Source: Candidatus Sigynarchaeum calidifontis (lineage in GTDB: Archaea > Asgardarchaeota > Lokiarchaeia > Sigyniarchaeales > Sigyniarchaeaceae). From it: a DNA stretch of 18,434 nucleotides. Shown here one piece after another: positions 1 through 18,434 of the stretch (position 1 is its first letter; the number at the start of each line of letters is the position of its first letter). The DNA lies in assembly GCA_030587475.2 (NCBI GenBank), contig JAUQYZ020000104.1, forward strand, positions 1 through 18,434, in the 5' to 3' direction. A program made the translations under genes and the position numbers. The notes under the pieces are model-generated. The model did not search any database and was not told the DNA's origin. It saw only the letters and a program-made list of their open reading frames with translations.

Positions 1-55
1 TGTGGCTCCCGCTCTGGACGGGGTTCGGGTTTAGATTGTGGACTTCGCGGTGGGC

Positions 56-2890: not shown

Positions 2891-2907
2891 GCGTGATCTC
2901 CTTGTTC

Positions 2908-2950
2908 ACAAATGAGAGCAACGAGTTCGGCAATTGCTGCTGCCATTTGC
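2908..2950 (-). promoter_or_regulatory. Predicted stem-loop in the aglB 5' leader
   Basis: Minus strand GCAAATG...CATTTGT encloses AGCAA...TTGCT. It lies between a TTTAAT TATA-like element (~2983-2988) and the SD. Confidence 0.35.
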
Positions 2951-3038
2951 TATTATCTGGAGGGGATCAAAGCTCCGTTGGAATTAAAGCCGTTTGGAAC
3001 ATTCCTTGTGCGACTTCCGGAACGCTTTGCATGAGGAT

Positions 3039-3908
3039 TCAAGACTGGAAGCGAGCAAGGAGGATGACGGCCACGAGCAACAAGATGATGCCAGGAATGA
3101 AAAGCCATGGAAAAACGATGCTTTGACCGAAAAGGAAGGTTCCAGCAACGATCGGGAGGATGTTATTAATTGATGATGAAACGGGAATGACATGAATGGC
3201 TTGCGCTTTTTTGAATGCTCGCTGAGAGAAATATATACCGAACAGCGTTCCCAGCAAGACCCCGGCAAGCCCTGCGATGCCCAGCACCCATCCCAGCACC
3301 TCGCTTCCGGGTAACGACACTGCATCGAACCCGACGGTCACCAGCTGCCCCGATATGGACACCACCGCGTATGATGTCCCGACCAACATGGCGAGGGCTT
3401 GCACCGCCCATTTCCTTGACAGCCTCGCCATGAGACTGCCCGTCACCACGAGAGCTGCGATAGTGATTATAATGGTGATCGCGCTCAAAAGGAACGTGAT
3501 CTGGAAAAAAGCGGATATCGTGACATCGCCGGACACGCCAGCAATGCTCACGAGAAAAATGGCCGCGATTGCAAGTGAAACACCGCACCATTCGATCTTG
3601 GACAGCTTTTCCTTCAGCCCGATGACGGCACCAGCGACGAGCACTAGAAGGCCAGCAGTTGAAAGTGGCTGAGCCAGCGTGATGCCGATCAAGTCAATAC
3701 CGATGAAAAAAAACGGGGCAAAGAGGATCGTTTGCATCAGGATACCAAGAATCCAAAGCGGACGTTTTAAAAATGGGGTAATGTTCGAATCGTCGACTAT
3801 ACCGCTCCTGTTCACTTCCCGCTTCTGTAATATGAGGCCGATGCTGTTTATCGCGGTTCCCGACAAGACACACGCGATGCCGAGGGCGAAATCAAGGCTT
3901 GACATCAC
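3039..3908 (-). CDS. DMT-superfamily transporter, NIPA (Mg2+ transporter)-like
   Basis: About 9 hydrophobic helices. GLILQKR, FLKRPLWILG, LAQPL and LKEKLS patterns are typical of NIPA/DMT proteins. Start is GTG 3908 or ATG 3905. Confidence 0.8.
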   Translation of the reverse strand: MMSSLDFALGIACVLSGTAINSIGLILQKREVNRSGIVDDSNITPFLKRPLWILGILMQTILFAPFFFIGIDLIGITLAQPLSTAGLLVLVAGAVIGLKEKLSKIEWCGVSLAIAAIFLVSIAGVSGDVTISAFFQITFLLSAITIIITIAALVVTGSLMARLSRKWAVQALAMLVGTSYAVVSISGQLVTVGFDAVSLPGSEVLGWVLGIAGLAGVLLGTLFGIYFSQRAFKKAQAIHVIPVSSSINNILPIVAGTFLFGQSIVFPWLFIPGIILLLVAVILLARFQS

Positions 3909-3968
3909 ACGTCATCTCCACTTTTTTTGGAAGGAGAGAATTTTACGAAACATGCGCGTAGCACATGA

Positions 3969-4907
3969 TCAAGACTTCAGCGCGACGCGGAGTAACGTGA
4001 ACATCTGGGGAAGCATGGCAGCGATCTTCGGACCCAGCGCCTCGAGCGAGGGGAAGCTGCCCACCCGGCCGAGAAGAAACAAGTAAGTCTGGGGATCACT
4101 GCCATTTTCGAGAAAAACGGCCGCGAAGTTCTCCGCATCGAGTTTCAACTTGCTGGCCTTGACCGAAGGAAAACGGATCACGGTTTTCTGAAACGATTGC
4201 AGGTACGTGGAACAGAACTGCGCGATGTCCTTGTCCTTGATATCGGCATAGTAATCGGCGATCGTGAGCATGTGCTGGTCATAGAGCACGGCAGCCACCG
4301 CATTTATTTCCTCGGCGAAATCTTTCATGGTTTTCTGCACGAGCACGTCACGGGGATATAAATCCTGGAAGATAGCGGAGAAACTCGACGTGATCGTGTA
4401 GGTGTCGTAGATGGTCGTGTTCTCGAATTCAAGCGGGAAATTGCCGCCGACGATGTCAATGATCCGTTCCTGGAGCATCTCGATGTTCTTGGCTCCTTGC
4501 AAGTCACCATTCAAGACATTCTCTGCCTTGTGGAAAAAGACGTATATTTTCGGGGTGATCCGGAGCTCGATGAATTGCGCGACGAGATCCTTCATGAAAT
4601 CGAGGGTTTCAGTGAAACGGGCGATGTCCTGGATGTCCACGACGTAAATGCAGACGTCCGTCTTGTCAAAATACTTGTCAGCTTGTTTCAAGTACTTGAT
4701 GAGGTATTTTTTTTGACCGCCCAGGTCATGGATCGTTATAACGTAGTCTAGGAACCTGAATTCTTTTCTTTCCACGAATGTAGTGGGTTTGATGTTGGCC
4801 TTGATGAGCCGCTCGGCTTCGAGCGTGGCGACGATCGATGTCTTCCCCGAGTTATCGAGGCCGGTGAAGATTATTTTTTTTGACGTGTCCGGCGGGGATT
4901 CCACCAT
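3969..4907 (-). CDS. Rag/Gtr-like small GTPase with C-terminal roadblock-like domain
   Basis: G1 GLDNSGKTS, G2 PTT, G3 DLGGQ, G4 FFHKAE, G5 TTIYD, plus a ~120 aa C-terminal domain. ATG 4907 is preceded by GGGTG at a 6-nt spacer. Confidence 0.88.
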   Translation of the reverse strand: MVESPPDTSKKIIFTGLDNSGKTSIVATLEAERLIKANIKPTTFVERKEFRFLDYVITIHDLGGQKKYLIKYLKQADKYFDKTDVCIYVVDIQDIARFTETLDFMKDLVAQFIELRITPKIYVFFHKAENVLNGDLQGAKNIEMLQERIIDIVGGNFPLEFENTTIYDTYTITSSFSAIFQDLYPRDVLVQKTMKDFAEEINAVAAVLYDQHMLTIADYYADIKDKDIAQFCSTYLQSFQKTVIRFPSVKASKLKLDAENFAAVFLENGSDPQTYLFLLGRVGSFPSLEALGPKIAAMLPQMFTLLRVALKS

Positions 4908-4964
4908 GTCATTCACCCGTGAAAACAACATCTCCGGCGAGCCATAAAAAATCGATCCTTACTC

Positions 4965-6206
4965 TCACGCGCCGGGAGATTTTCCCCGCGTCACGACGTG
5001 CATGCCCGCTTCCAGGAGTGCCGCGCAAACGATTGCGATACACGCAACCAAAGCCATATCCGCGACCATGCCGACCTTGATGAGCAAGACCAGAGCAATG
5101 CCTCCCACGCCGAACAACAAGGAAGCCAACACGCCGTTCCATGCACAGGAGAGAGGTGAAGCCGCGCCGCGGATGCGTGAACTTGGCACGATGCGGGCTG
5201 CTTGTGCTAAATGGAAAGCGGGCACGATAAGCATTACTGGAACGTCCTGGACAGTGGTCGCGGGGCCGGTAAAAGCCGCGATTGTCAATAAGCCGGTAAA
5301 AACAGAAAGGACAAGCGCTATCATGACATCGAACCAGGCTTTCCAGCCCGCTCGCTGCATCGTACCCGCGGGTTGGGACCGGGTCTTGATACCAATGGCA
5401 GCGGCAAGCCCCGCGGCGGCGCCGAGCCCGGACACAAGCACCATGCGCCACGTTGCACTGTCCATCGAGCTGCCGGAGAGGATGCTCGTTCTTGGCAAGA
5501 CGAGACCCCCGAGAAAGCATGCAAGGAAGGCTAGATATGCACTGGACGTGACGTGGACGAGCAAGGCAAGCCTTTCCTTTGCAAAGAGACGATCCCCAGC
5601 AGGGTTTCGTCGCGGCACGAGGGAATCGATGGCGGCCTCGCCTTGCCTTACATTGATCTTTACCGCTCGCCCGGCGATTATCGAGGCAACTAAAAGCAAG
5701 ACCCCGATAACCGGCTCTATCAACACCGGCGTGCCGCCAATGGCGAAACAAGTCGCGGACACGAGCATCGACGCGGACAGATCGGTGATCGCCCCGTGAT
5801 CATCGCCCCGCTTGGATAAAGAAGCTGCCGATGAAATACAGAGAGACTTGAAGTCGAAAAACGCGCATGCCAGCATGAAAAAGGACGACAGCGATGCGAG
5901 AAGCGCGATGTCATCCGCGAAGGCTAATTGTCCCGAAGTAAAGAGCACGAGCAGGGTCCTGGTGATGATGCCACTTGCCAGGATGATGGCAAGCAAGATC
6001 ATGGTTTGCATTACCGGCGCGAGCCGCCGTGCGAGTGGATAGAAGAATGGGGGAATGATGGCCAAGAAAGGAAACCACGAGAGCGAGAACATGTACAAGT
6101 ACCTCGTCACGATGGCGTGCAGGGTCAAGACGAACCAGGTGAACCCGGCAAAGAACAGCACCGATGCCAGGACACGTTCCCGCCCGCCGGATTCCTCTCT
6201 TGCCAT
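4965..6206 (-). CDS. Polytopic membrane protein of unknown function (about 12 TM, two halves joined by a hydrophilic loop; possibly divergent MFS-like)
   Basis: 413-aa ORF of repeated hydrophobic segments. GGAGG SD upstream. Starts 3 nt after the stop of the upstream gene. Confidence 0.75.
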   Translation of the reverse strand: MAREESGGRERVLASVLFFAGFTWFVLTLHAIVTRYLYMFSLSWFPFLAIIPPFFYPLARRLAPVMQTMILLAIILASGIITRTLLVLFTSGQLAFADDIALLASLSSFFMLACAFFDFKSLCISSAASLSKRGDDHGAITDLSASMLVSATCFAIGGTPVLIEPVIGVLLLVASIIAGRAVKINVRQGEAAIDSLVPRRNPAGDRLFAKERLALLVHVTSSAYLAFLACFLGGLVLPRTSILSGSSMDSATWRMVLVSGLGAAAGLAAAIGIKTRSQPAGTMQRAGWKAWFDVMIALVLSVFTGLLTIAAFTGPATTVQDVPVMLIVPAFHLAQAARIVPSSRIRGAASPLSCAWNGVLASLLFGVGGIALVLLIKVGMVADMALVACIAIVCAALLEAGMHVVTRGKSPGA

Positions 6207-6209
6207 CGA

Positions 6210-7778
6210 TCAAGCCTCCACGACGGCCACGTCGAGCAGCACGTTTTCCTCGAATAACCACCGCTCGCAAGGATGCCCGGCGATGCGGTTTATCGTGACG
6301 AGGATGCCGAAACAGGCCACCACGGCCATGTCCCACGGGAACCTGATCTTGATGCCCGTGTACGCACCATCGTCCCATGTAACGAGCGCTGTTTCCGAGG
6401 GATCGATTACCGGGTCGAAGCATGCCAGATAGGCCGCTTCGTCATCCCACGCGGGCACGCCCAAGGTGGCGATGACCGCGGGATCCGAGGCCCACGTGTG
6501 CAGCACCATGCTTTGCGTGTCGACCCGCACGTTGATCTCGATGTTCTCGCGACCGTGGAACCAGCCATCGTCTTGCATGTCGAGATGAATGGTGAACCGA
6601 TCTATAGCATCGGGAACGCGCATGATCAAGTTCAAGCCCGTCTCGTTCCACGTCGCAGCGAGGGAGATGTTCTGGAAAGTTGCAGGCGTGATCGTTGACG
6701 GCCCATCCAGGATCCAGCCAGACGTGCCGAGGTCGTAGTCATTGCCCATGTCATAAACCCCAGGCGACGCGCGTTCGTTGACGGGGTATAGCGGGTACGG
6801 GTCGATACCATCGAAAATCCCGTCGCCGTCCGTGTCAGGATCCAGCGGGTTCGACGATGTGAAGAGGCCCGCGATGATCTCGTCGAGGTCCCCCAGCCCG
6901 TCGTCGTCCGTGTCCGCCTTGGCGGGCGAGGAACCGGCCGTCGTCTCGGTCAAGGGGAAGTCACCATCGTCTGGAACGCCGTCGCCGTCGAAGTCCGCCA
7001 TCCCGACGACGCGTCCCCAGCCCTTGCTCGCGAGCTTGCCCCACGCGTCGCGGTCGAGCAATCTCATGAAAAAAGCGTTGTAGTCGTAGTTTTCCCCGAA
7101 GTCGCCGTCGAGCGTCCACGGCAAGTCGGGGTTCTGGAACGCTGGATAGCCGCAATACTCGAGCATCGAGTCGACCTGGTGGTTGAACTCGTGGACGAAG
7201 TACCAGCTCCAGGTGAGGGGATCCCAGCACAACGGGATGTCCGTGTAGCCAGTGCTGCCCAGGAACCCGTAATCGACGCCGAACGTCGTTCCCCCGTAGG
7301 CTGCTGGAAGGATGGCCGTGTCCCACGCGTAGAACACGACGACGCCATCGTATTGATCATCGCGCACGCCGCGGGCGCGGAGGTCTTGCTCGACCGATGC
7401 GAATTCTCCGTCCATCGGGTTCACGTCACTGGGCGGCAGCCAGTACCCTCCCCACGGGGCCTCGAGAAATCGCGTTTCGGCCAGGAACTCGTCGATGTAC
7501 GTGTAATCGATCGCCAGGTCGACGACCAGCCGGGAGTTGCGCCAGAAGAATTCCCTCGCCTCGGCGACCTCGCGCCGCAGCGCGGTGATGTCCTGGGCAG
7601 TCGTGGTGCCACCAACCGTGTTCGTGTACACGGCGACGAGCACGTCCACCTTTAAAACGTTCTTGGAACCCATGCCACGCCATTCCAGCGGGATGCCTCG
7701 TGCCACGAAGAACGCGCAGACCGGCGCGGCGACCATCAGCGCGACGGCCACCGCGCGCGCACCACGGCCTCGATCCAT
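6210..7778 (-). CDS. Secreted or membrane-anchored zincin-type metalloprotease with Ca-binding DxDxDG (TSP3-like) repeats
   Basis: N-terminal basic plus hydrophobic signal/anchor. HEFNH (HExxH) at 7179-7193. Repeats DFDGDG, DTDDDG and DTDGDG. Acidic, Trp-rich C-terminal domain. Confidence 0.75.
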   Translation of the reverse strand: MDRGRGARAVAVALMVAAPVCAFFVARGIPLEWRGMGSKNVLKVDVLVAVYTNTVGGTTTAQDITALRREVAEAREFFWRNSRLVVDLAIDYTYIDEFLAETRFLEAPWGGYWLPPSDVNPMDGEFASVEQDLRARGVRDDQYDGVVVFYAWDTAILPAAYGGTTFGVDYGFLGSTGYTDIPLCWDPLTWSWYFVHEFNHQVDSMLEYCGYPAFQNPDLPWTLDGDFGENYDYNAFFMRLLDRDAWGKLASKGWGRVVGMADFDGDGVPDDGDFPLTETTAGSSPAKADTDDDGLGDLDEIIAGLFTSSNPLDPDTDGDGIFDGIDPYPLYPVNERASPGVYDMGNDYDLGTSGWILDGPSTITPATFQNISLAATWNETGLNLIMRVPDAIDRFTIHLDMQDDGWFHGRENIEINVRVDTQSMVLHTWASDPAVIATLGVPAWDDEAAYLACFDPVIDPSETALVTWDDGAYTGIKIRFPWDMAVVACFGILVTINRIAGHPCERWLFEENVLLDVAVVEA

Positions 7779-7835
7779 GTCTGATGACCTCGATGGGCAT
7801 TACCACGCGGCGGGAAAAAAAGCGCGCTGTCGGGA

Positions 7836-8354
7836 TCACTTTCCCTTGCGCTTGCCGAGGCTAGAGGAATAGCGGTCGATGACCGAGGCGAGGGTCTTGC
7901 CCGCATCGATGCCGGCCGCGCCGGATCGTGCGGGTTCCCTGGACGCGAGGAAGTTCACGGCCATCTGTTCCGCGTCCGGATGCGTGGCGCGGTACTCGGC
8001 CCAGCTGCGAGCCATCTCCGCGTTGAATTCCTTGTTCAACCGCTTTGCTTGATCGATGTCCTGGGGCGTGACCGTCCCCGCGTTCGGGCACGATGGAGAC
8101 GGTGCCATCGTGGCCGCCGTGCCATCGTGACCCGTGACCGTGACCGGGAACATGCGACATACCCGTGCCCGATACTCGTATCCCGCGCAAGAATTATCCG
8201 CTCTGAGCAAGGGGCATGGCCCGTGGATCTCGACCGCGAAGCCGTAGTCGATGGCGGCGGCGGCGATGGCGGGGAAGCGGGTGGCGAGCTCGCGATACTC
8301 GGCCGGTGTCATGGGCACGTTGACGCAGCACTTGCCACACTTCTTGCAGTCCAC
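7836..8354 (-). CDS. YkgJ family cysteine-cluster (CxxCxxCC) Zn/Fe-S protein
   Basis: CKKCGKCC, CPLL, C-x-x-YEYR-x-x-x-CRMFP and a further CP. GTG start. Confidence 0.9.
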   Translation of the reverse strand: MDCKKCGKCCVNVPMTPAEYRELATRFPAIAAAAIDYGFAVEIHGPCPLLRADNSCAGYEYRARVCRMFPVTVTGHDGTAATMAPSPSCPNAGTVTPQDIDQAKRLNKEFNAEMARSWAEYRATHPDAEQMAVNFLASREPARSGAAGIDAGKTLASVIDRYSSSLGKRKGK

Positions 8355-8472
8355 GGGAAAAGCCTTCGTGTATCGCGATCGACGCGCGAATCTCGGTCAC
8401 GAAATGGAGCCCCGGAAAAAAAACGTGGCGCTTTTTACACATGTGGCATATTGACGGGAACCATCGTGCTCC

Positions 8473-9444
8473 CTACCGGTCGAAAAACCGGTGGTAAAAG
8501 GCAATGATCTCCTCCAGGGGCATCGGGGGACCCGATTCCAGGTGCACGTGGCGGCCGTCGGCCTTCCCGAGCGCCAAGCACGTGTCGACCCAGGACAAGA
8601 CCAGCTCGGAATTGGCTGCGAACCGCTCGGGGTTCACCTCGGCAAGGCGATATTTTTTCACGTCCATGAAAGGGACGAGGTGCTGGTCCCGCGTCCCGTC
8701 GTTGGCGTGGATGTGGTACACCTTGACGTGCCGCGCGAAATCGGGGAGGTATCGGGAGACTTGATCATTCCCCGCCCCGTCGCGCTGCAAGGAGAGCAAG
8801 AGATGGCCAGTATCGAGACAAAACATCTGCCGAACAGCGAGATCCTTCCGGCCCATCCCTGCATAGCGGTCGACGAGCCGCTGGCGCCACGCCACGAGCC
8901 GCCCGAGATCGCGGTAATAGGCCGGCGTGTCTTGCGCGTTCTCCCAGCACATTGCCGCGCCGCACGAGCTCATGGCGTCGATGATTGGCTTGCTGGTCAT
9001 GAGATCGAGGAAATCCTTGTCGATGTCCCCGGTCCGGATCAGCGGGGCATGAAGCACGACCGATTCCACGCCCAGTTCCTTGCACAATGCCATGGTCCGC
9101 TGGAAGGTATCGACAAAGCCCGGGGCGAGGGGCAGGTTCTCGTGGGAGAAGTTGATGTGAAAGCCGAGCACGAACGGGTACGCGCGCCTTGGGCGCCATG
9201 CCCGCTCCGCGTCGAGCCACGGCTGCTTGATGAGGTCTTGGCGGAACAGGTGCTCGATGTCGCAGAAGTGGATGACCCCGCCCACGCGGTGCCGCGTGCC
9301 AAATTCTGCTATTAATTTGTCAAGAGTTGCGGCCATCGCGGGGAAGATGGCCTCTGGATCGTCCCCTCCCGCTTCGATGTCCGCGAGCGACTGCCGGTCG
9401 CCCAGGAAAAGCCTCGGGTATATCGAAAAACCGATGTAGTCCAT
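8473..9444 (-). CDS. Xylose isomerase-like TIM-barrel metalloenzyme (sugar phosphate isomerase/AP endonuclease 2 family)
   Basis: Metal-ligand pattern VVLHA, WEN, LDTGH, HIHAND..DQH and LE. Confidence 0.85.
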   Translation of the reverse strand: MDYIGFSIYPRLFLGDRQSLADIEAGGDDPEAIFPAMAATLDKLIAEFGTRHRVGGVIHFCDIEHLFRQDLIKQPWLDAERAWRPRRAYPFVLGFHINFSHENLPLAPGFVDTFQRTMALCKELGVESVVLHAPLIRTGDIDKDFLDLMTSKPIIDAMSSCGAAMCWENAQDTPAYYRDLGRLVAWRQRLVDRYAGMGRKDLAVRQMFCLDTGHLLLSLQRDGAGNDQVSRYLPDFARHVKVYHIHANDGTRDQHLVPFMDVKKYRLAEVNPERFAANSELVLSWVDTCLALGKADGRHVHLESGPPMPLEEIIAFYHRFFDR

Positions 9445-9569
9445 AGGAACCGCCGGTCCTTGATCGCCGGGAGGGCTTTTAACGATGCGATCGAGGGATG
9501 ATGAATTTCACTTAAACTTGCTCGATACTAGCCGGAACACCTGGAACGGGAATGAAACTTGAAAATGAT

Positions 9570-9577
9570 AAAAAAAA
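9570..9577 (-). terminator. Oligo-T archaeal terminator after EF-1alpha
   Basis: T8 run on the minus strand 13 nt past the TGA, followed by more T-rich sequence. Confidence 0.55.
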
Positions 9578-9590
9578 GTGGGTTAAATGT

Positions 9591-10877
9591 TCACCCTTCC
9601 TTCGGGGCTTCGATGATGTCCTTGACGATGCCCACGGCGACCGTGCGGCCCATGTCCCGGATGGCGAGGCGACCCAGCGGGGCAAACTCGTTAAATTTTT
9701 CCACGCACACCTTGGCAACGGGTTGCAACGAGATGATACCGTTGTCGCCCACCTTCATAAAATCGGCGTTCGTGCCGTCGGCCTTCGTGAGCTTCGCGAA
9801 GCGCATGGCGACCTGTGCCGTGTGGAGGTGGACGACGGGCGTGTAGTTCACGGACACCGCGGTCGGGTGCCAGATGACGATGCTCTGGACGTTGAGCCAG
9901 TTTTCGGGCCCGGCGACGCGCGGGGGGTTGTTTACCGGCCCGACCACGTCACCGCGGTTGATCTGCTTCCGCTCGATACCGCGGATGTTGAAGCCGATGT
10001 TGTCGCCCGAGTGAGCCTCCTTCATGGCCTCGTGATGCATCTCGATGCTCTTCACATCTGCGGTGAGGCCAGTGGGGTTGATGATGATCTTGTCGTTGAC
10101 CCTGAGGACACCGGTCTCGATACGGCCAACGGGCACGGTGCCCGCACCCTTGATCGAGTAGCAGTCCTGGATGGGCAAGCGCAATGGCTTGGAATCTTCC
10201 TTGGGAGGAACCTGGAACTTGTCGATGGCACCCAGGAGGGTCGGTCCCTTGTACCAGGGCATGTTCTTGCTGGGCTCCTTGAGGTTGTCGCCCTGGAGGC
10301 CAGAAACAGGCACGAAATCAATGGTCTCGGTCTTGTATCCGACCTTCTTGAGGAGGTTGGAAAGCTCCTTCTTGATCTCTTCGTAGCGATCCTGCTTCCA
10401 TTCCACCACGTCCATCTTGTTGACCGCGACGACGATCTGGTTGACACCCAGCGTCTTGGCAAGGAACGCGTGCTCGCGGGTCTGGCCGTTAGCACCGATG
10501 CCGCCCTCGAACTCGCCGGGGCGGGCCGACACGACGAGGATACCGCAGTCGGCCTGGCTGGCGCCCGTGATCATGTTTTTGACGAAGTCCGCGTGGCCAG
10601 GCGCGTCGATGATCGTCCAGTAGTACTTGGGAGTCTCGAATTTCTTGAACGCGAGGTCGATGGTGATGCCGCGTTTCCGCTCTTCCATCAACTGATCCAT
10701 GAAGAACGCGAACTTGAAGGATGCCTTGTTCAAGTCCGACGCGACCTTTTCCATGTCCCGTAATTCCTTCTCGGTCACACCACCACCGACGACGAGGATA
10801 TGACCCATCGTCGTGCTCTTGCCGTGGTCAATGTGGCCGATAACCACGATATTCATATGCGGCTTTTCCGTTGGAAT
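9591..10877 (-). CDS. tuf: Translation elongation factor EF-1alpha (aEF1A)
   Basis: KPHMNIVVIGHIDHGKST, RGITID, DAPGH, NKMD, GTVPVGRIETG and RDMGRTVAVG. Start placed at ATT 10877 by SD spacing. Alternatives are GTG 10886 or ATG 10856. Confidence 0.98.
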   Translation of the reverse strand: MPTEKPHMNIVVIGHIDHGKSTTMGHILVVGGGVTEKELRDMEKVASDLNKASFKFAFFMDQLMEERKRGITIDLAFKKFETPKYYWTIIDAPGHADFVKNMITGASQADCGILVVSARPGEFEGGIGANGQTREHAFLAKTLGVNQIVVAVNKMDVVEWKQDRYEEIKKELSNLLKKVGYKTETIDFVPVSGLQGDNLKEPSKNMPWYKGPTLLGAIDKFQVPPKEDSKPLRLPIQDCYSIKGAGTVPVGRIETGVLRVNDKIIINPTGLTADVKSIEMHHEAMKEAHSGDNIGFNIRGIERKQINRGDVVGPVNNPPRVAGPENWLNVQSIVIWHPTAVSVNYTPVVHLHTAQVAMRFAKLTKADGTNADFMKVGDNGIISLQPVAKVCVEKFNEFAPLGRLAIRDMGRTVAVGIVKDIIEAPKEG

Positions 10878-10963
10878 TTTTAACACCTTTTCTTCATTTT
10901 TGTAAAAGATCACCCCATTAGCCTCGAAAATATAGAAGATCAAAGCTCACGGGGCTCTTGGAT

Positions 10964-10987
10964 CGGTGTGGAGCGAACTCCCCACCG
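10964..10987 (-). promoter_or_regulatory. UUCG-tetraloop hairpin at the predicted 5' end of the EF-1alpha mRNA leader
   Basis: Minus strand CGGTG-G-GGAG-TTCG-CTCC-A-CACCG gives 9 WC pairs plus one G-A mismatch. Confidence 0.6.
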
Positions 10988-11010
10988 GTAATCCATTGAG
11001 TTGCCGTCCG

Positions 11011-11024
11011 CATATAAGTTTAAG
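11011..11024 (-). promoter_or_regulatory. Putative BRE/TATA promoter for tuf
   Basis: Minus strand CTTAAAC-TTATATG. The expected TSS (~10989) is right at the base of the UUCG hairpin. Confidence 0.55.
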
Positions 11025-11040
11025 GGCGGGTGGATATACA

Positions 11041-11050
11041 TTTTATATAC
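11041..11050 (+). promoter_or_regulatory. Putative TATA box for the RHH gene
   Basis: TTTTATATAC about 40 nt upstream of ATG 11089. Confidence 0.5.
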
Positions 11051-11088
11051 GCCTTGCGTGTTTGATAGCATCCACGAGCTGTAATATA

Positions 11089-11529
11089 ATGAGTCCATCT
11101 ACACGTGCAAAGAACAAGACAAACGTTTCTTTCTGGATCAACAAGGATCTGCTCGCAAGCTGGGACGCCCATTGCGAGAAAAAGAACATCTCCCGCACCC
11201 AGCTCATCATCGACGCGGTCAACGACAAGATTGCCCATGACGAGAACTTGCGCGATCTCTCCATGAAGATCGATCGCCTCGCAGAGATCGTGTCCGAATT
11301 TAACCCTGACGCGGAGTCTCTCATCGCCGAATCTCAAAGATTGAACACCAGGGGCCGCGTGCTCGAACAGATACTGGTCACGCGCGAGATGGGTATCAGG
11401 AGAGAAAACATCAAGGGTTTCTCATCGTACGCGCTTCAAGTGGCCTTGGAATCCTTGGAAAGGGACGGCATCATCCGCGGGGACAAGGTCGGCAGGTATT
11501 GGCTCACGGACTTTTATTCCAAGCCTTGA
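11089..11529 (+). CDS. Ribbon-helix-helix (CopG-like) DNA-binding protein with coiled linker and C-terminal wHTH-like domain
   Basis: KTNVSFWINKDLLASWDAHCEKKNISRTQLIIDAV fits the RHH pattern. The C-terminal ALESLERDGIIR..GRYWL looks like a winged helix. ATG 11089 is preferred over the track's GTG 10966, which lies in the tuf leader. Confidence 0.8.
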   Translation: MSPSTRAKNKTNVSFWINKDLLASWDAHCEKKNISRTQLIIDAVNDKIAHDENLRDLSMKIDRLAEIVSEFNPDAESLIAESQRLNTRGRVLEQILVTREMGIRRENIKGFSSYALQVALESLERDGIIRGDKVGRYWLTDFYSKP

Positions 11530-11583
11530 ATCCTTGATTATCGATAAGGCACGAGTAAAAACGAAGGATGGAAGTCGACGTGC

Positions 11584-12513
11584 TCAAAATGCATCGAAGA
11601 TCAAGCCGAGCAAGGCCATCCGTAGCAGCATGCCATAACGCGGCTGCTTGAAATACACGGCCTGGGGCATCGTATCAACAGACGGGTCGATCTCGTTGAT
11701 GCGCGGCAGCGGGTGCATGACAAGCAGCTCTTTTTTCGCGTTCTTGAGCATCGCGCGGGTGAGGATGTAAAAGTTTTTCACCTTGAGGAACTCTTCCTCG
11801 CTGCGGAATCGCTCCCGCTGGATACGGGTCATGTAAAGGACATCGATCGAGGGAATGACCGGGTCGAGCGATTCCATCTCCTCGAATTGCACGCCCTTGG
11901 ATTCGAGCAGCAGCTTGTCCTCGCGCCGGACCTTGAGCTGCTGCGGGGAGATGAGCTTCAGATTGACATCGTAATTCACGAGCAAAGGCAACAACGAGTG
12001 AACCGTGCGGCCGTAAGTGAGGTCGCCGCAGATACCGACCGTCAACCCGTCGAGCGTGTGGCGCTCCTTCCTGATCGTCATGAGATCGAGGAATGACTGG
12101 GTCGGGTGCTCCTGCGCGCCGCTGCCGGCGTTGATGACCGGGATGTCGAGAATCTCGGACGCGTATTTTGCGGCACCCTCCCACTCGGACCTTATCACGA
12201 TGATATCGCTGTAATTTTGCACGATCTTAAGCGTGTCGGACAGCGTCTCTCCTTTCTTGATGCTCGACTTGTCCCAGTCCGCGAAGCCGATGACCGCACC
12301 ACCCAGGTGCTTCATCGCGGCGTCGAACGAGAGCCGGGTCCTCGTGGATGGCTCCAAGAAGATCGACCCGAGTATCTTGTTTGCCAGCACGTTGCTGCCT
12401 GTTTTCACGACGCCTTCCATCTTGTCGGCGACGTCGAGCAAGTATTCGATTTCCGCCTTGGAAAAATCGAGGGTGGAGATAATATCCCGGTTGGAAAACG
12501 GGTTTGGCATCAT
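11584..12513 (-). CDS. pyrB: Aspartate carbamoyltransferase catalytic subunit
   Basis: FLEPSTRTRLSF, KGETLSDT, HPTQ, GDLTYGRTVHSL, YMTRIQRER and HPLP. AGGTGA SD. Start 12513 or 12510. Confidence 0.98.
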   Translation of the reverse strand: MMPNPFSNRDIISTLDFSKAEIEYLLDVADKMEGVVKTGSNVLANKILGSIFLEPSTRTRLSFDAAMKHLGGAVIGFADWDKSSIKKGETLSDTLKIVQNYSDIIVIRSEWEGAAKYASEILDIPVINAGSGAQEHPTQSFLDLMTIRKERHTLDGLTVGICGDLTYGRTVHSLLPLLVNYDVNLKLISPQQLKVRREDKLLLESKGVQFEEMESLDPVIPSIDVLYMTRIQRERFRSEEEFLKVKNFYILTRAMLKNAKKELLVMHPLPRINEIDPSVDTMPQAVYFKQPRYGMLLRMALLGLIFDAF

Positions 12514-12878
12514 TTTTCACCTGCTATTTGCTGTTCGAGCGAGAGGATCTTCAAGAAGAGCGCCCGGTCCACGCCCAGCTCGTCGAGGTTCTGAATGACC
12601 AGCGGGACGACCGAGAACGTGCGATCCGTTTTCGGGACCACGTTCCCGACGAGCCGCACCAGGGCGCCCGGCGCGAGGCTGCCTTGCACGATGGTCGCCG
12701 GGCTGCCGTCCTCGGCACTGCCGTCACGCACGATGTCCATGGCCAGCACCCCGGTTCCGTCGTCGATCTCCAGGCGGTCGCCTTCAAAGGATTTCACGTT
12801 CCCGTGGATCCAGACGTGTTTATCGGTGAAGACCACGTCCTTGATGGCCTTCCTCGTTGATTTCGCTGGTATCGACAC
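12510..12878 (-). CDS. Single OB-fold protein, RPA14/RPA3-like small subunit of replication protein A
   Basis: PA...I.DV, VWIHGNV, IDDGTG, GALVRLVG and VIQNL plus a C-terminal helix. This matches the layout I recall for Thermococcales RPA14. Confidence 0.75.
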   Translation of the reverse strand: MSIPAKSTRKAIKDVVFTDKHVWIHGNVKSFEGDRLEIDDGTGVLAMDIVRDGSAEDGSPATIVQGSLAPGALVRLVGNVVPKTDRTFSVVPLVIQNLDELGVDRALFLKILSLEQQIAGEK

Positions 12879-12948
12879 GGCATTTCACGCGATCGTGGTC
12901 GAGCGCGATCTAATACCTTTTTAATTTGCTTTGGAAGAATAAACATCG

Positions 12949-12964
12949 TGCAATAATAATTGCA
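12949..12964. promoter_or_regulatory. Inverted repeat TGCAAT-N4-ATTGCA in the divergent rpa14/rfcS promoter region
   Basis: Perfect 6-bp arms inside an AT-rich intergenic tract. Confidence 0.4.
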
Positions 12965-13023
12965 TTGTTAAGCATTAATTAATCCCGCGGAAGAATCCCC
13001 CTCCACCAAGAGTGCACGCTGCC

Positions 13024-13977
13024 ATGATCGACGCCCCGTTCGTGGAAAAATACCGGCCTCGCAGCTTGAAGGATGTCGTCGGCCAGGACGAGATCATCAC
13101 GAGACTGAAAGGCTTCGTTTCCGACAGGTCGATGCCGCATCTCATCTTCGCGGGCCCTGCTGGCACGGGAAAAACGACGTCGGCGATCGCGCTGGCCAGG
13201 GACATGTTCAAGGACACCTTCTCGCAGAACTACAAGGAGCTGAACGCCAGCGACGCGCGGGGGATCGGCGTCGTCAGGACCATGGTGAAAGATTTCGCTC
13301 GTACCCAGCCGGCCGGCGACGCGCCGTTCAAGATCCTCGTGCTCGACGAGGCGGATAACATGACCGCCGCCGCGCAGCACGCCATGAGGAGAACCATGGA
13401 AAATTTCACGAAATTCTGCCGTTTCATCTTGATCTGCAACTATTCCAACAAGATCATCGCCCCCATCCAGAGCCGGTGCGCCGTCTTGCGCTTCTCGCCC
13501 CTCACCAACGATGACATCGCCAAGCGCCTTCGCTACATCGCGGAGAAGGAAGGCATCAACCTCACCAAGCAAGGCAGCGAAGCGATCCTGTACGTGTCGG
13601 GCGGGGATTGCCGGAAGGCGGTGAACGTGCTGCAAGCCGTGTCCACGATCTCGAAGGATATCACGGATGAATCGGTCTATCAAGTTACTGGCCGCGTCTT
13701 TCCCGAGCAAATCCGTGCCATGATACAGATGGCGCTCGACGGGGAGCTGAACAAGAGCCAGGAGAAGCTGGAGAGCCTGCTCATGGAGTTCGGCCTGGCA
13801 GGCTCGGAGATCATCAAGCAGATCCACGCCGAGATCTTCAACATGAACGTCCCAGAGCGCGTCCGCATTGGCTTGATCAAGATCGTGGGCGAGATCGACT
13901 TCCGGCTGAACCAAGGCGCCAGCGAGATGATCCAGCTCAACGCGCTGCTTGCCAAGATCGTGCTTCTCAACGATTGA
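13024..13977 (+). CDS. rfcS: Replication factor C small subunit
   Basis: PFVEKYRP, Walker A GPAGTGKTT, ELNASDARG, Walker B LDEAD, SRC and GDCRKAVN. No intein. Confidence 0.97.
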   Translation: MIDAPFVEKYRPRSLKDVVGQDEIITRLKGFVSDRSMPHLIFAGPAGTGKTTSAIALARDMFKDTFSQNYKELNASDARGIGVVRTMVKDFARTQPAGDAPFKILVLDEADNMTAAAQHAMRRTMENFTKFCRFILICNYSNKIIAPIQSRCAVLRFSPLTNDDIAKRLRYIAEKEGINLTKQGSEAILYVSGGDCRKAVNVLQAVSTISKDITDESVYQVTGRVFPEQIRAMIQMALDGELNKSQEKLESLLMEFGLAGSEIIKQIHAEIFNMNVPERVRIGLIKIVGEIDFRLNQGASEMIQLNALLAKIVLLND

Positions 13978-13995
13978 TCGGGGGTCTCTAGCCCC

Positions 13996-14865
13996 GTGCA
14001 AAACGAAACCCAGTATCATTATTTCATCAAAGCATGGTACGATGGCCAGTCGTACGACGGCTCGCAATATCAACCAGCCCGGCGCACGGTCGACGGGGCG
14101 ATCGTCGATGCCTTGCGAGAGCTCGGGTATCTCCCGGCCGGGCCGCCGCACAACGATTATTTCAAGGTCGCGGGCCGCACCGACAAGGGGGTTTCGGCCC
14201 TGTCCGCCGTGTACTATGTCCGGGTGCTCAAGCCGCTGCATCCGTGCGAGGTGAACGGGCATCTCAAGGTGAACGGGCACGACATCATGATCTGGAGCGT
14301 GGCGCGGCTTGCCGGGCAGTCAAACCCGCGACATGCTGCATGCCGGGTCTACAAGTATTTCCACGTCATGGGGCACGAACAAGTCGACGTTGAACACGTC
14401 CGCGAGGGACTCCAGGCCCTCCTGGGTCATCACGAGTTCAAGGGATTCGCGAAGGCACGGTTCGACTTCACGCTGCGGACGACGAGGACGATCGACGTGG
14501 CCACGGTGGAGCGAGAAGGCGACGTGCTGGTCTTCACCTTCCAGAGCAAAGGCTTTTTGCGGGAACAAGTTCGCCGGATGGTTGCTTTCTTGCTCGCTCA
14601 CGAAAAAGACGCGAGCATAGCGGAACGGGTTGAGGCCGTGCTCCGTACGGGCCAGCAACCGAACATCGAACCCGCCGCCCCCGCGGGTCTCGTGCTTTGG
14701 AACATCCAGTACGAGCCCGAAGTCGCTTGGGAGGACCTCGACGGCTGCCGGGAACAGTTTTTCAAGGCCTTGCGGGCCAGGTACATCGTGGAGCGGGCGC
14801 GATCGGCGATGCTCGAAGCAATCTTCACGACAATGCTCGATGCAACGAGGAATGGAAAAAAATAA
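13996..14865 (+). CDS. truA: tRNA pseudouridine(38-40) synthase
   Basis: YDGQSYDGSQYQP, AGRTDKGVSA, LLGHHEF.GF, GFLREQVRRMV and PAAPAGLVL. Confidence 0.95.
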   Translation: MQNETQYHYFIKAWYDGQSYDGSQYQPARRTVDGAIVDALRELGYLPAGPPHNDYFKVAGRTDKGVSALSAVYYVRVLKPLHPCEVNGHLKVNGHDIMIWSVARLAGQSNPRHAACRVYKYFHVMGHEQVDVEHVREGLQALLGHHEFKGFAKARFDFTLRTTRTIDVATVEREGDVLVFTFQSKGFLREQVRRMVAFLLAHEKDASIAERVEAVLRTGQQPNIEPAAPAGLVLWNIQYEPEVAWEDLDGCREQFFKALRARYIVERARSAMLEAIFTTMLDATRNGKK

Positions 14866-14877
14866 CCGTTCACGCTT

Positions 14878-16485
14878 TTAATTGATTGGCTTGCCCAGGT
14901 CAAAAAAGTTTCGTTCCTTTCGAACGAGGGATTGCAAGATCTGGACGCATCCAGAGGCAGGAACCCGTATCTGCTTCATGGAATCGCGATCTCGTATCGT
15001 GACAGTCCCGTCCTCGATGGTCTGGTAGTCGATCGTGAAACAGAAGGGCGTACCGATCTCGTCAGCCCTGGCGTAACGACGCCCGATCTGGCCAGCATGG
15101 TCGTAGAACACGGGGATGCCTGCTTTCTTGATCGCGCTGAAGAGCTCCAAGGCTTTTCCGGTGAGATCCGGCTTCTTCATGAGCGGGTAGACCATGGCGC
15201 TGAACGGGGCGATGTGGGGCTGGAGCTGGAACCAGTCCCATTCCCTGTCCGATTCGCTCTTCTTTATCCCTCCTTTCTCGATCCCTGGACGGTACGCGTG
15301 CTCCAGCACGCAATAAAGCGCACGCTCGACGCCGAACGACGGCTCTACCACGTGGGGCACGACCTTCTTGACTTCCTTTTGCCCGGGCTTTTGCACGTCC
15401 ACCTCGAGCTTGTTGCCGCTGTTCTTGCCGTGCGTCGTGAGGTCGTGGTTCGTGCGATAGGCGATGCCAACCGCCTCCTTCCAGCCCATGTCGAGCTTGA
15501 TTTCGAGGTCAAAATTACCCTTGGAATAGAACGGGGTTTCTTTTTCTAGCAAGTGGCGGAACCGGAGCGCCTCATACGGTATACCAATCGATTGGTAGAA
15601 CTGGAACACTTTACCGACGAAATATGCCTGGATATTGTTGGGAAATATGCCTTTTTCCATCGCGTCGCCGATCGTGATCTCGATCGTGTCATCGGCGGTC
15701 TTCTCGTCGCGCTGGACATCGCGCGTGATTAGCCGTATCTTGATGTCCTTGGCAGACTCGTAATCCGGGTGGACAGGCTCCTCGGGGTCGAAGAAGAACT
15801 CAATCTCCATCTGCGTGAAGCCGCGCATGCGGATAAGTCCTTGACGGGGGGATATCTCGTTGCGATAGCTCGGCCCGATCTGGCATATACCAAATGGGAG
15901 CTGGGCGCGCATGGTCTGGCAGACCCGCTTGAAGTCACAGAAAATAGACTGGGCGGTTTCAGGCCGCAAGTAAGCACGTTTCGCGTTGCCAGATGGCCCA
16001 ACGTCCGTCTTGAGCATGAGGTTGAACTCCTCGACGGGCGCGAGGCCACCACCGCACTCGGGGCAAGCGATGGCGTTCTTCTTGATCGCTTCCTGGATTT
16101 GAGGAACGGTCATGCCCTCCGTCTTCACCCCCGCCTGGTTTTCGAGCACGTGATCGGCGCGGAACTCGGCCTTGCACTTGATGCACGACACGAGCGGGTC
16201 TGAAAATGACGAAACGTGGCCGCTCGCTATCAACACCTCTTCTGGAAGAACGACCGAACCCTCGATCTCGTAGATCAAGGGATCGACCGATGACCACACG
16301 AAGAATTCCCGCCAGGCTTTTTCGATGTTCCGCTTGAGCTGCATACCGTTCGGGAGGAAATCGAAGAAGCCCGCGAGGCCGTTGTTGTAGATTTCAGCGG
16401 TTTGAGCGATGAAACCACGGCGGGTGAGCAAGTCCATCACGATGTCAAGCAGCGGCCTGTCTTTCTTCTTGCCTTTTTCGGACAT
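14878..16485 (-). CDS. glyS: Glycine--tRNA ligase (archaeal/eukaryotic homodimeric type)
   Basis: ASGHV..FSDP, RADH, LRPETAQ, SYRNEISPRQGLIRMR.FTQMEIE, PHVVEPSFGVER and IGRRYARADEIGTP. ATG 16485 is preceded by AAGTG at a 6-nt spacer. Confidence 0.97.
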   Translation of the reverse strand: MSEKGKKKDRPLLDIVMDLLTRRGFIAQTAEIYNNGLAGFFDFLPNGMQLKRNIEKAWREFFVWSSVDPLIYEIEGSVVLPEEVLIASGHVSSFSDPLVSCIKCKAEFRADHVLENQAGVKTEGMTVPQIQEAIKKNAIACPECGGGLAPVEEFNLMLKTDVGPSGNAKRAYLRPETAQSIFCDFKRVCQTMRAQLPFGICQIGPSYRNEISPRQGLIRMRGFTQMEIEFFFDPEEPVHPDYESAKDIKIRLITRDVQRDEKTADDTIEITIGDAMEKGIFPNNIQAYFVGKVFQFYQSIGIPYEALRFRHLLEKETPFYSKGNFDLEIKLDMGWKEAVGIAYRTNHDLTTHGKNSGNKLEVDVQKPGQKEVKKVVPHVVEPSFGVERALYCVLEHAYRPGIEKGGIKKSESDREWDWFQLQPHIAPFSAMVYPLMKKPDLTGKALELFSAIKKAGIPVFYDHAGQIGRRYARADEIGTPFCFTIDYQTIEDGTVTIRDRDSMKQIRVPASGCVQILQSLVRKERNFFDLGKPIN

Positions 16486-16584
16486 GGGTATCACTTGCGA
16501 GAGATAATGCGCCGGCATTCTTTATATGAGCGGGGCGGGAGAGGATCACCATTGTCCAGAGATAAGAGTCGAGTGTGCACGGCT

Positions 16585-17034
16585 ATGGATGACCAGCTGT
16601 ACAAGATCCACCTCGAATTTGACACGGCGGACCCCGAGGGGAACGAGCTCACGTTCAACTTGCTCCCCTTGCCGAAAGGCGCTCGCATGGTGATCAACCC
16701 GAAGTTCTTACAGCAGCTAATCCAGCTTACCGAGAAAAACCCGGAATACCGGCAGTTGAAAGCCATTAAAATAGCGCAAACCGGCCAGGGCAAGCCGCTT
16801 GCCAAGATCTTCAGCAACTACTACGTGCTCTTTTTCACGAAGAAAGACAGCCAAAAAAAGCGTGGTATCCTCATCTCTTTTGATTGGAACAAGGGGGGCA
16901 TGATTAGCGCTGCGTGGCCAATCTCTTTCCGGGACGAGATCATCACGACCCCGAAGCTACTCATGGACGTGATACACGATCTCAGCGTGCACCCGGACCA
17001 GTACCAGAACGTCAACTTGCTCGTACCAGCGTGA
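16585..17034 (+). CDS. Hypothetical soluble protein (~149 aa)
   Basis: Protein-like composition and GC3-biased codons. Fills the gap divergent from glyS. TTTATATG at 16521-16528. Alternative start TTG 16552. Confidence 0.75.
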   Translation: MDDQLYKIHLEFDTADPEGNELTFNLLPLPKGARMVINPKFLQQLIQLTEKNPEYRQLKAIKIAQTGQGKPLAKIFSNYYVLFFTKKDSQKKRGILISFDWNKGGMISAAWPISFRDEIITTPKLLMDVIHDLSVHPDQYQNVNLLVPA

Positions 17035-17052
17035 CCGCCATGCCTTCTTATT

Positions 17053-17682
17053 TTATTTCTCGCAACCACTTCCAGATACGAATTCATCCCACCAGTCCTC
17101 GTAGTTCCGCACCATCTTAACCGTGCCATCCTTGCGCTTGAATTGAATGCCGCCGAAGGCGTTTATGGCACTGGTGTCTCTCGGATGTGACGTGACCTTG
17201 TCCGGTGCCAGGCTGGCAGGCATAGCAGCCTTGGCAGGAGGGCTTGCAGCGTTTACCTCGCCACTTATCGATTCGAGATTTTCGATGACCCGTCCATTCT
17301 TGTCATAGAAAGCTTCGTGTGCCTCGTCGAGCGAGCGCTTCTGCCGGAGGTGCTGGTAATAGCTGGCTTCGGACGCGAAACGTTCCTTGCACACGGGGCA
17401 CTGGCACGCCTCCTTGAACAGCTGCTCTATGAAGGTCCTGGACACGGACGAGATGTCGAAGCCCGATTCGGCGATGGCTGGAGGCCGCGGCTTGAGCTTC
17501 CGGGATGCACGTATGCTGGCCATCGACCCGCTACACTTGTGATGCCCCGCAAGCCGCCCGTTCTTGTCGAACTCGAACATCAACTTGCATCCATGCTCGC
17601 ACTCCCAGTAAAGCAGCTTGGCACCGCAGAACTTGCACACCAGAGGGAAAGATCTGGTTTTACACCAACGTCCGTGCTTCAT
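17053..17682 (-). CDS. Zinc-finger protein (N-terminal Cys/His cluster plus C2H2-like finger)
   Basis: CKFC..CEHGC..HHKC followed by CPVCKERF-x5-YYQH-x10-H. Confidence 0.78.
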   Translation of the reverse strand: MKHGRWCKTRSFPLVCKFCGAKLLYWECEHGCKLMFEFDKNGRLAGHHKCSGSMASIRASRKLKPRPPAIAESGFDISSVSRTFIEQLFKEACQCPVCKERFASEASYYQHLRQKRSLDEAHEAFYDKNGRVIENLESISGEVNAASPPAKAAMPASLAPDKVTSHPRDTSAINAFGGIQFKRKDGTVKMVRNYEDWWDEFVSGSGCEK

Positions 17683-17799
17683 GGGTTCTTGTCAATGGAA
17701 CCAACACGGCGTGGAGCATTAACCATTGCTGTTAATCGAGTTGCGGAGCATTTTTCTTTGTCTTGTGATTACTAAGGAAGAGTATCCGGAGTCAGAGCC

Positions 17800-18434
17800 A
17801 TGGTGCGCATCTACAACACGCTCACCAAGAAAGTCGAGGAATTCGTGCCGCAGAACCCGCCACGTGTCACGATGTACACGTGTGGGCCAACGGTTTACGA
17901 CTCGCCTCACGTAGGGCACGTACGGTCAGCTGTCGCGTTCGATGTTATCTGGCGATACCTGGAATACAAGGGCTATGACGTCATCTTCGCGCGCAATTAC
18001 ACGGATATTGATGACAAGATGATCAACCGCGCGAGCAAGCAAGGCACCACGATCTTGCAGCTGGCAAAGCAATACATCCGGGAATACGAGATAGCAATGG
18101 ACGCGCTCAACGTCAAGCCACCGGTCTATGCTCCACGTGCAACCCACTTCATCGCGGAGATGATCGCCTTCATCAAGGACCTCGAAGCCAAGGGGTTCGC
18201 ATACGTCAAGAACGGAAGCGTCTACTTCTCCGTGCCCAGGTTCGATGCATACGGCCGGCTCAGCAAGAAACCGCAGAAGGAGATCACGGACATCGGCCGC
18301 CGGGACTCGGAAGAGTTCGGGGAGGATAAGGACGACCCGCGCGACTTTGCCCTCTGGAAGGCCCAGAAGCCCGGGGAACCCGCCTGGGACTCGCCGTGGG
18401 GCAAGGGCCGCCCGGGCTGGCACATCGAGTGCTC
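17800..18434 (+). CDS. cysS: Cysteine--tRNA ligase, 5' part (runs off the window)
   Basis: Manual translation: MVRIYNTLTKKVEEF..MYTCGPTVYDSPHVGH..NYTDIDDK..DFALWK..WDSPWGKGRPGWHIEC. Confidence 0.97.
   Translation, partial: MVRIYNTLTKKVEEFVPQNPPRVTMYTCGPTVYDSPHVGHVRSAVAFDVIWRYLEYKGYDVIFARNYTDIDDKMINRASKQGTTILQLAKQYIREYEIAMDALNVKPPVYAPRATHFIAEMIAFIKDLEAKGFAYVKNGSVYFSVPRFDAYGRLSKKPQKEITDIGRRDSEEFGEDKDDPRDFALWKAQKPGEPAWDSPWGKGRPGWHIEC

Follow-up and report, generated by a model that had tools for sequence, protein, structure and literature searches.

The window analysed here, 18,434 nucleotides of contig JAUQYZ020000104.1 (positions 1 to 18,434 of the forward strand) from Candidatus Sigynarchaeum calidifontis (genome G000 below), encodes on its minus strand the archaeal elongation factor EF-1alpha, aEF1A or tuf. 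The Pfam domains GTP_EFTU, D2, D3 and eEF1A_C were found above cut-off in the product, its best match in PDB is 1jny (E 1.9e-156), and the closest solved structures are those of aEF1A/eEF1A. Names of the close database homologues point to Ca. Sigynarchaeum and Lokiarchaeia, and the genome yielded a single copy of tuf. The gene stands isolated between pyrB and a TIM-barrel gene (window 9591-12513), in an order kept in relatives, and the S7 gene lies apart from it on another contig (C231), an arrangement that differs from the usual archaeal str cluster. A divergent 146-aa gene (window 11089-11529, plus strand) shares the tuf promoter region and is syntenic in all close relatives; its product looks by eye like a small DNA-binding protein, gave no Pfam match above cut-off, and has a start codon that varies among lineages.

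Read on the minus strand, the region upstream of the tuf body consists of AGGTG, a 6-nt A/T spacer and ATT, directly followed by the P-T-E-K-P-H codons and then by the first in-frame ATG (Table 1). This is exactly the layout, with codons for I-P-T-E-K-P-H-M, on which the original prediction of an AUU start had been built, and the in-frame GTG 10886 is, as stated there, part of the Shine-Dalgarno (SD) sequence itself, lying within AGGTG. Upstream of ATT 10877 the tuf frame stays open and contains, besides GTG 10886, GTG 10913 and TTG 10943; these last two and an out-of-frame 5-codon upstream ORF (uORF) were absent from that prediction.

Table 1. Features of the tuf gene, its start region and its leader (coordinates of the window)
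Feature	Position	Strand	Remark
tuf coding sequence, 428 aa, aEF1A	9591..10877	-	Pfam and best PDB match
First in-frame ATG (Met8), pick of ordinary gene callers	10854..10856	-	Without SD; 8th percentile of start-context score
Probable tuf (aEF1A) start codon ATT, register of sisters' ATG	10875..10877	-	Conserved in a second species; Met in P0001
A/T-rich spacer, 6 nt	10878..10883	-	Most ATG-starting sisters have 9 nt, 3 more
In-frame GTG within SD, rival start with 3-residue extension	10884..10886	-	Chosen in NCBI MDO8087720.1 (P0048)
Shine-Dalgarno AGGTG, 5 bp complementary to 16S 3′ end	10884..10888	-	16S 3′ end of same-family G002
Out-of-frame 5-codon uORF, stop 2 nt before ATT	10880..10897	-	uORF of sister species ends at same TAA; may be chance
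5′ leader hairpin 2	10912..10955	-	90% of cells paired; 4/10 pairs changed on both sides
5′ leader hairpin 1	10964..10987	-	98% of cells paired; 2/9 pairs changed on both sides
TATA-like box	11011..11017	-	Position conserved in sisters

The ATT at 10877 is a real base and not an assembly error. The possibility of an error was raised because the first 26 relatives inspected all have ATG at the tuf start. However, a second NCBI assembly with a longer contig (GCA_030587505.2, L036), which differs at 2 positions in 7287 nt, has identical bases at ATT, and its annotation already translates this codon as Met (P0001). The same ATT is found in five contigs (L035 and L040-L043, from JGI, ENA and Logan) of a sister species resembling S. 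springense, the tuf CDS of which has 90.4% nucleotide identity to that of G000 and the tuf protein of which matches NCBI's S. springense entry at the N-terminus; a sequencing or assembly fault is thereby left with practically no chance of explaining ATT. Against the 90.4% identity over the CDS, an 18-nt block around ATT, from about -13 to +5, is identical in both species, and the bases upstream of GTG 10886 diverge.

In the other nine close lineages the register of ATT is occupied by ATG (eight lineages) or GTG (one), in agreement with the earlier claim that ATT sits where Met is expected; a near-cognate codon thus stands at tuf in the start register of its homologues. ATT itself occurs in 2 of the 11 close lineages. 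The comparison of tuf 5′-ends that the original prediction had called for was carried out on 161 Lokiarchaeia genomes, in which 139 tuf starts were read by eye: 134 are ATG, two TTG, two ATT (G000 and G128) and one ATC (G054), and none of the 139 requires an extension from the SD GTG. G054 and G128 belong to another family of the class and represent independent cases. In G128 (C113, near 30705), ATT is present where its relatives carry ATG. In G054 (C138:9839, L202), ATC occupies the Met position, an in-frame TGA lies three codons upstream, and there is no ATG, GTG or TTG before KPH; unless this single assembly is wrong, tuf would be able to start at an ATH codon. A further candidate for a tuf ATT start, G098, was ruled out by an in-frame ATG. 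The NCBI Lokiarchaeia tuf protein P0019 is annotated with an N-terminus longer by three residues, in which Ile takes the Met position; it may be another case of GTG, 6 nt and ATH. The sequence of the closest third lineage, P0043, ends just past the start. The change from an ancestral ATG to ATT probably took place in the common ancestor of the G000 species and S. springense. Trees left the genus unresolved, and the single origin is based on the shared 18-nt block and a shared 3-nt deletion in front of ATT.

This deletion affects the distance between SD and start. AGGTG pairs with the 16S 3′ end over 5 bp with a duplex energy of -6.5 kcal/mol, the 16S 3′ end having been taken from the same-family genome G002, as no 16S is assembled in G000. 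Among 360 starts verified by orthologs, obtained by comparing G000 with 1.2 Mb of its congener G001, SD runs of at least 5 are most frequent at a spacer of 6 (29 at 6, 18 at 7 and 9 at 9), and the SD of the tuf ATT has this usual spacing. Spacing and start-context scores were taken from this ortholog-based set and not from a model whose training genes had a stop close upstream; that model was discarded for its built-in bias against spacers 6 and 9. In both ATT species, ATT 10877 scores higher than GTG 10886. The earlier observation that GTG, 6 nt and ATG recur in the GTPase gene of the window and in glyS, with spacers of 4 or 7 for pyrB, was reproduced, and in the GTPase gene the GTG is constant, and the codon downstream of it alternates between ATG and TTG (L044). 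Most ATG-starting sisters have 9 nt between SD and tuf start, and both ATT species have lost 3 nt of them. This shortening from a long to the modal spacing may compensate for the weaker ATT codon and probably eased its appearance, an order of events that we infer. The aEF1A gene of Pyrococcus abyssi has the same SD-start geometry as G000 tuf, and initiation drops there once the distance to its AUG is increased by 3 nt (PMC6237735).

Given the observed bases, conservation, register, spacing and recurrence of ATT, ribosomes probably initiate there. The 30S subunit would dock on AGGTG and thereby bring AUU into the P site, 6 nt being the preferred distance, and the ordinary initiator Met-tRNA with aIF2-GTP would pair with AUU through a third-position mismatch, so that M-P-T-E-K-P-H begins. 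We hold initiation at AUU, partial use of both starts included, as the best reading of the sequences with good confidence. The original prediction of an AUU start is supported in its register, its SD geometry, the second species, the independent tuf cases and a comparable case in the ribosomal gene eS26; the GTG of the SD persists as an unlikely alternative.

According to this alternative, tuf is translated in an SD-independent manner from GTG 10886, with an MLK extension in front of Ile and the old Met turned into an internal Ile. NCBI annotations are themselves split, since P0001 begins at ATT and the S. springense protein MDO8087720.1 (P0048) at this GTG. GTG is a canonical start and far commoner, with 24 GTG and 9 TTG starts against about 3-6 near-cognates in about 220 ortholog pairs, and about half of the verified ATG starts lack an SD run of at least 4. 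The 3-nt deletion left the GTG in frame. At the equivalent position, 12 nt upstream, seven sisters have an in-frame GTG (five) or ATG (L195 and L196), and AGGA lies upstream of it at a spacer of 6 in three sister lineages. Moreover, any single change of ATG yields a near-cognate codon, and register alone cannot separate a start codon from an internal Met that has been freed to become Ile.

Against this, GTG 10886 has no SD of its own in either ATT species, its complementary run being 3 in G000 and 2 in the sister species, whereas a run of at least 4 precedes 13 of 18 true GTG/TTG starts, and the bases upstream of it are those that diverge. GGTG with a spacer of 6 or 9 brings the GTG in frame by arithmetic alone. 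L050, L046 and L003 have the extension either blocked or in another frame, and in the tuf of G157 a stop in frame separates the SD-GTG from ATG. The rare codons TTA, AAA and ATT of the extension are unexchanged between the two ATT species (3/3 kept, against 2/7 in the tuf body, although these numbers are small). Finally, G054 represents a tuf without any canonical option. Starts still further upstream were rejected: divergence around GTG 10913 and TTG 10943 is non-synonymous, as in non-coding DNA, GTG 10913 is replaced by GCA in the sister species, and stops interrupt the frame in sisters.

Near-cognate starts also appear elsewhere in these genomes. The eS26 gene of G000 (C145, near 13007, minus strand; L198) has no ATG, GTG or TTG between the upstream stop and the conserved N-terminus, at which ATT stands 8 nt behind GGTG; three relatives have ATG, ATG and TTG. 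On G000 contig C213, ACG follows a strong SD in a gene that carries ATG at this position in G001, and G001 has clear ATC and ATT start cases of its own. Altogether, about 220 ortholog pairs gave 3 clear near-cognate starts and at most about 6. Genome-wide, an SD precedes in-frame ATT in 26 of 884 instances against 15.4 expected, a modest excess (p=0.008 uncorrected; p=0.21 against shifted frames), and in-frame ACG in 29 of 943 (p=0.003), compared with 1.75% for other codons. These counts point to near-cognate starts in some 1-3% of genes, a very rough figure, and 3/139 for tuf is about the same order as this background for any gene. ATT at tuf would have been tolerated since Lokiarchaeia accept such starts at roughly this frequency; it seems to reflect how these archaea tolerate near-standard starts in general and does not look like a special switch. 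Most likely, the codon is a drifted and compensated start and not a dedicated regulatory device. For this explanation as a whole, an SD-led AUU start that has drifted and been tolerated, our confidence is slightly below that for AUU initiation itself.

Reviews list only AUG, GUG and UUG as archaeal start codons (PMC7531240). A limited literature search returned no near-cognate starts in Lokiarchaeia beyond atubA, and none on an AUU-started tuf or a lineage-wide habit. In the S. springense-like species, cysS (L040, ~3068, minus strand) reads ATC GTG where G000 has ATG GTG; its start has probably moved to the GTG, or else this is another near-cognate start.

The original prediction also proposed that AUU tunes the supply of an abundant translation factor by initiation stringency, and this part was not upheld. 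A selected device of this kind would tie EF-1alpha output to the level of aIF1, in the manner of infC and possibly with help from hairpins or a uORF. The AUU of infC is widely conserved. In E. coli, the AUU start of infC, which encodes IF3, supports feedback because IF3 itself enforces start stringency (PMC4705826, reviewing Butler et al. 1987). Sigynarchaeum tuf likewise has AUU behind an SD on a translation-factor gene and to that extent resembles the SD-led AUU initiation of bacteria. Unlike infC, it lacks two defining properties of such a loop: its product is an elongation factor and no start-fidelity factor, and its AUU is not conserved in the lineage. An infC-like loop is not expected because EF-1alpha does not police start codons. 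In addition, the archaeal counterpart of IF3 in this role, aIF1, starts from ATG in three genomes.

Regulation nevertheless has points in its favor. Two species share the conserved ATT block, eS26 of G000 also begins at ATT, and the structured tuf leader is conserved. aIF1 of Sulfolobus rejects AUU in vitro (PMC4705826), and output from AUU should accordingly be sensitive to aIF1; a passive sensitivity of this sort is likely. Still, the ATT is recent and patchy (2/11 close lineages, 3/139 class-wide, as for the background), eS26 has canonical starts in its three relatives, and the leader hairpins are common to ATG-starting sisters, so that a selected regulatory role appears quite improbable.

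The leader itself, judged by the TATA-like box, is probably about 110 nt long, with transcription starting near 10989. It shows a folding z of -2.45 in G000, and over nine lineages its two hairpins have 93.5% of cells paired and 6 of 19 pairs changed on both sides, compared with at most 47% and 2 pairs in slid controls, a contrast that is flattered because the structure was derived from the same sequences. An Rfam search of the leader gave no match near the gathering score. The ribosome-binding site lies 3′ of hairpin 2 in weakly structured, A-rich RNA. The hairpins stop short of the SD and also occur in sisters starting with ATG, and so do not explain the ATT; they could be a stability or regulatory element.

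Counting against an AUU start, the genome encodes both aIF1 and a canonical initiator tRNA; loop 1 of aIF1 and the C-terminal Arg of uS9 look intact. An altered initiator tRNA as the cause was dropped, as a canonical, intron-containing initiator is encoded on C192 near 28154-28261. G000 has a second tRNA with a CAU anticodon (C82:1121-1195), which has an initiator-like A1:U72, an A29:U41 pair where the anticodon stem would have its first G-C pair, C33, and unusual D/T loops; its counterpart in G001 carries U33. An elongator Met, Ile2 or accessory initiator tRNA are candidate roles. One may speculate that AUU initiation in Lokiarchaeia is efficient enough for a protein among the most abundant of the cell despite intact aIF1 and a canonical initiator, and that in Sigynarchaeum the near-cognate starts of tuf and eS26 make the provision of translation machinery depend on stringency set by aIF1, with this atypical tRNA perhaps assisting, but we regard this reading as improbable.

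Translational coupling is common in archaea, and ribosomes could in principle reach ATT, or Met8, by reinitiation after terminating on the overlapping uORF. The uORFs of both ATT species end at the same TAA. This TAA is part of the A/T spacer, though, and may be a by-product of it; the uORF starts differ between the species and score poorly (12th percentile), and short uORFs occur in ATG-starting sisters too, which makes reinitiation very unlikely. Also very unlikely as a start is ATG 10856, which would give a 421-aa protein without PTEKPH: it is the first ATG, is picked by automatic annotators and retains the first beta-strand motif, but it has no SD and a poor context (Table 1), the two ATT species keep PTEKPH through synonymous changes, and annotators choose the same Met even when an upstream ATG is present (L037, L038). 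The ambiguity of the start explains why versions of 421, 428, 431 and 450 residues of one protein exist in databases.

A proposed ATT start in an Asgard archaeon is already in print, and the present one is notable for its gene. The atubA gene of Kariarchaeaceae was assigned an ATT start from homology and the distance to its ribosome-binding site (PMC13394414). As with tuf, this start was deduced and had been overlooked by annotation; the difference is that atubA is a single accessory gene described with no comparative follow-up, whereas tuf encodes an essential housekeeping factor with ATT in two species and independent recurrences. In Enterococcus faecalis, ebpA has an ATT start upstream of the annotated ATG, and its expression is reported to be attenuated (PMC4447247); ebpA is bacterial, while tuf is expected to be very highly expressed. 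Another close system is aEF1A of P. abyssi, the same gene with GGTG and 6 nt before the start and a Met-Pro N-terminus, which has AUG and a 9-bp SD in contrast to AUU and a 5-bp SD in Sigynarchaeum (PMC6237735). Its start region has served as a model mRNA for archaeal initiation in toeprinting and cryo-EM (PMC6237735), and a natural AUU start of aEF1A, with relatives that naturally carry AUG, GUG or AUC in its place, is directly testable. Should ATT indeed serve as the start, a codon rejected by archaeal aIF1 in vitro would give rise to an essential protein that is normally very abundant, and this would set a high bar for laxity of start selection in a lineage close to eukaryotes. AUG selection in eukaryotes is strict.

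Two further observations were made in relatives. In L044, genes for Alba and aIF1 (SUI1) lie at 18953-19711, just past the STT3 gene that adjoins the tuf locus. In L027 (G034) and L030 (G040), the tuf matches contain two internal in-frame stops, possibly owing to an insertion, an intron or an assembly fault.
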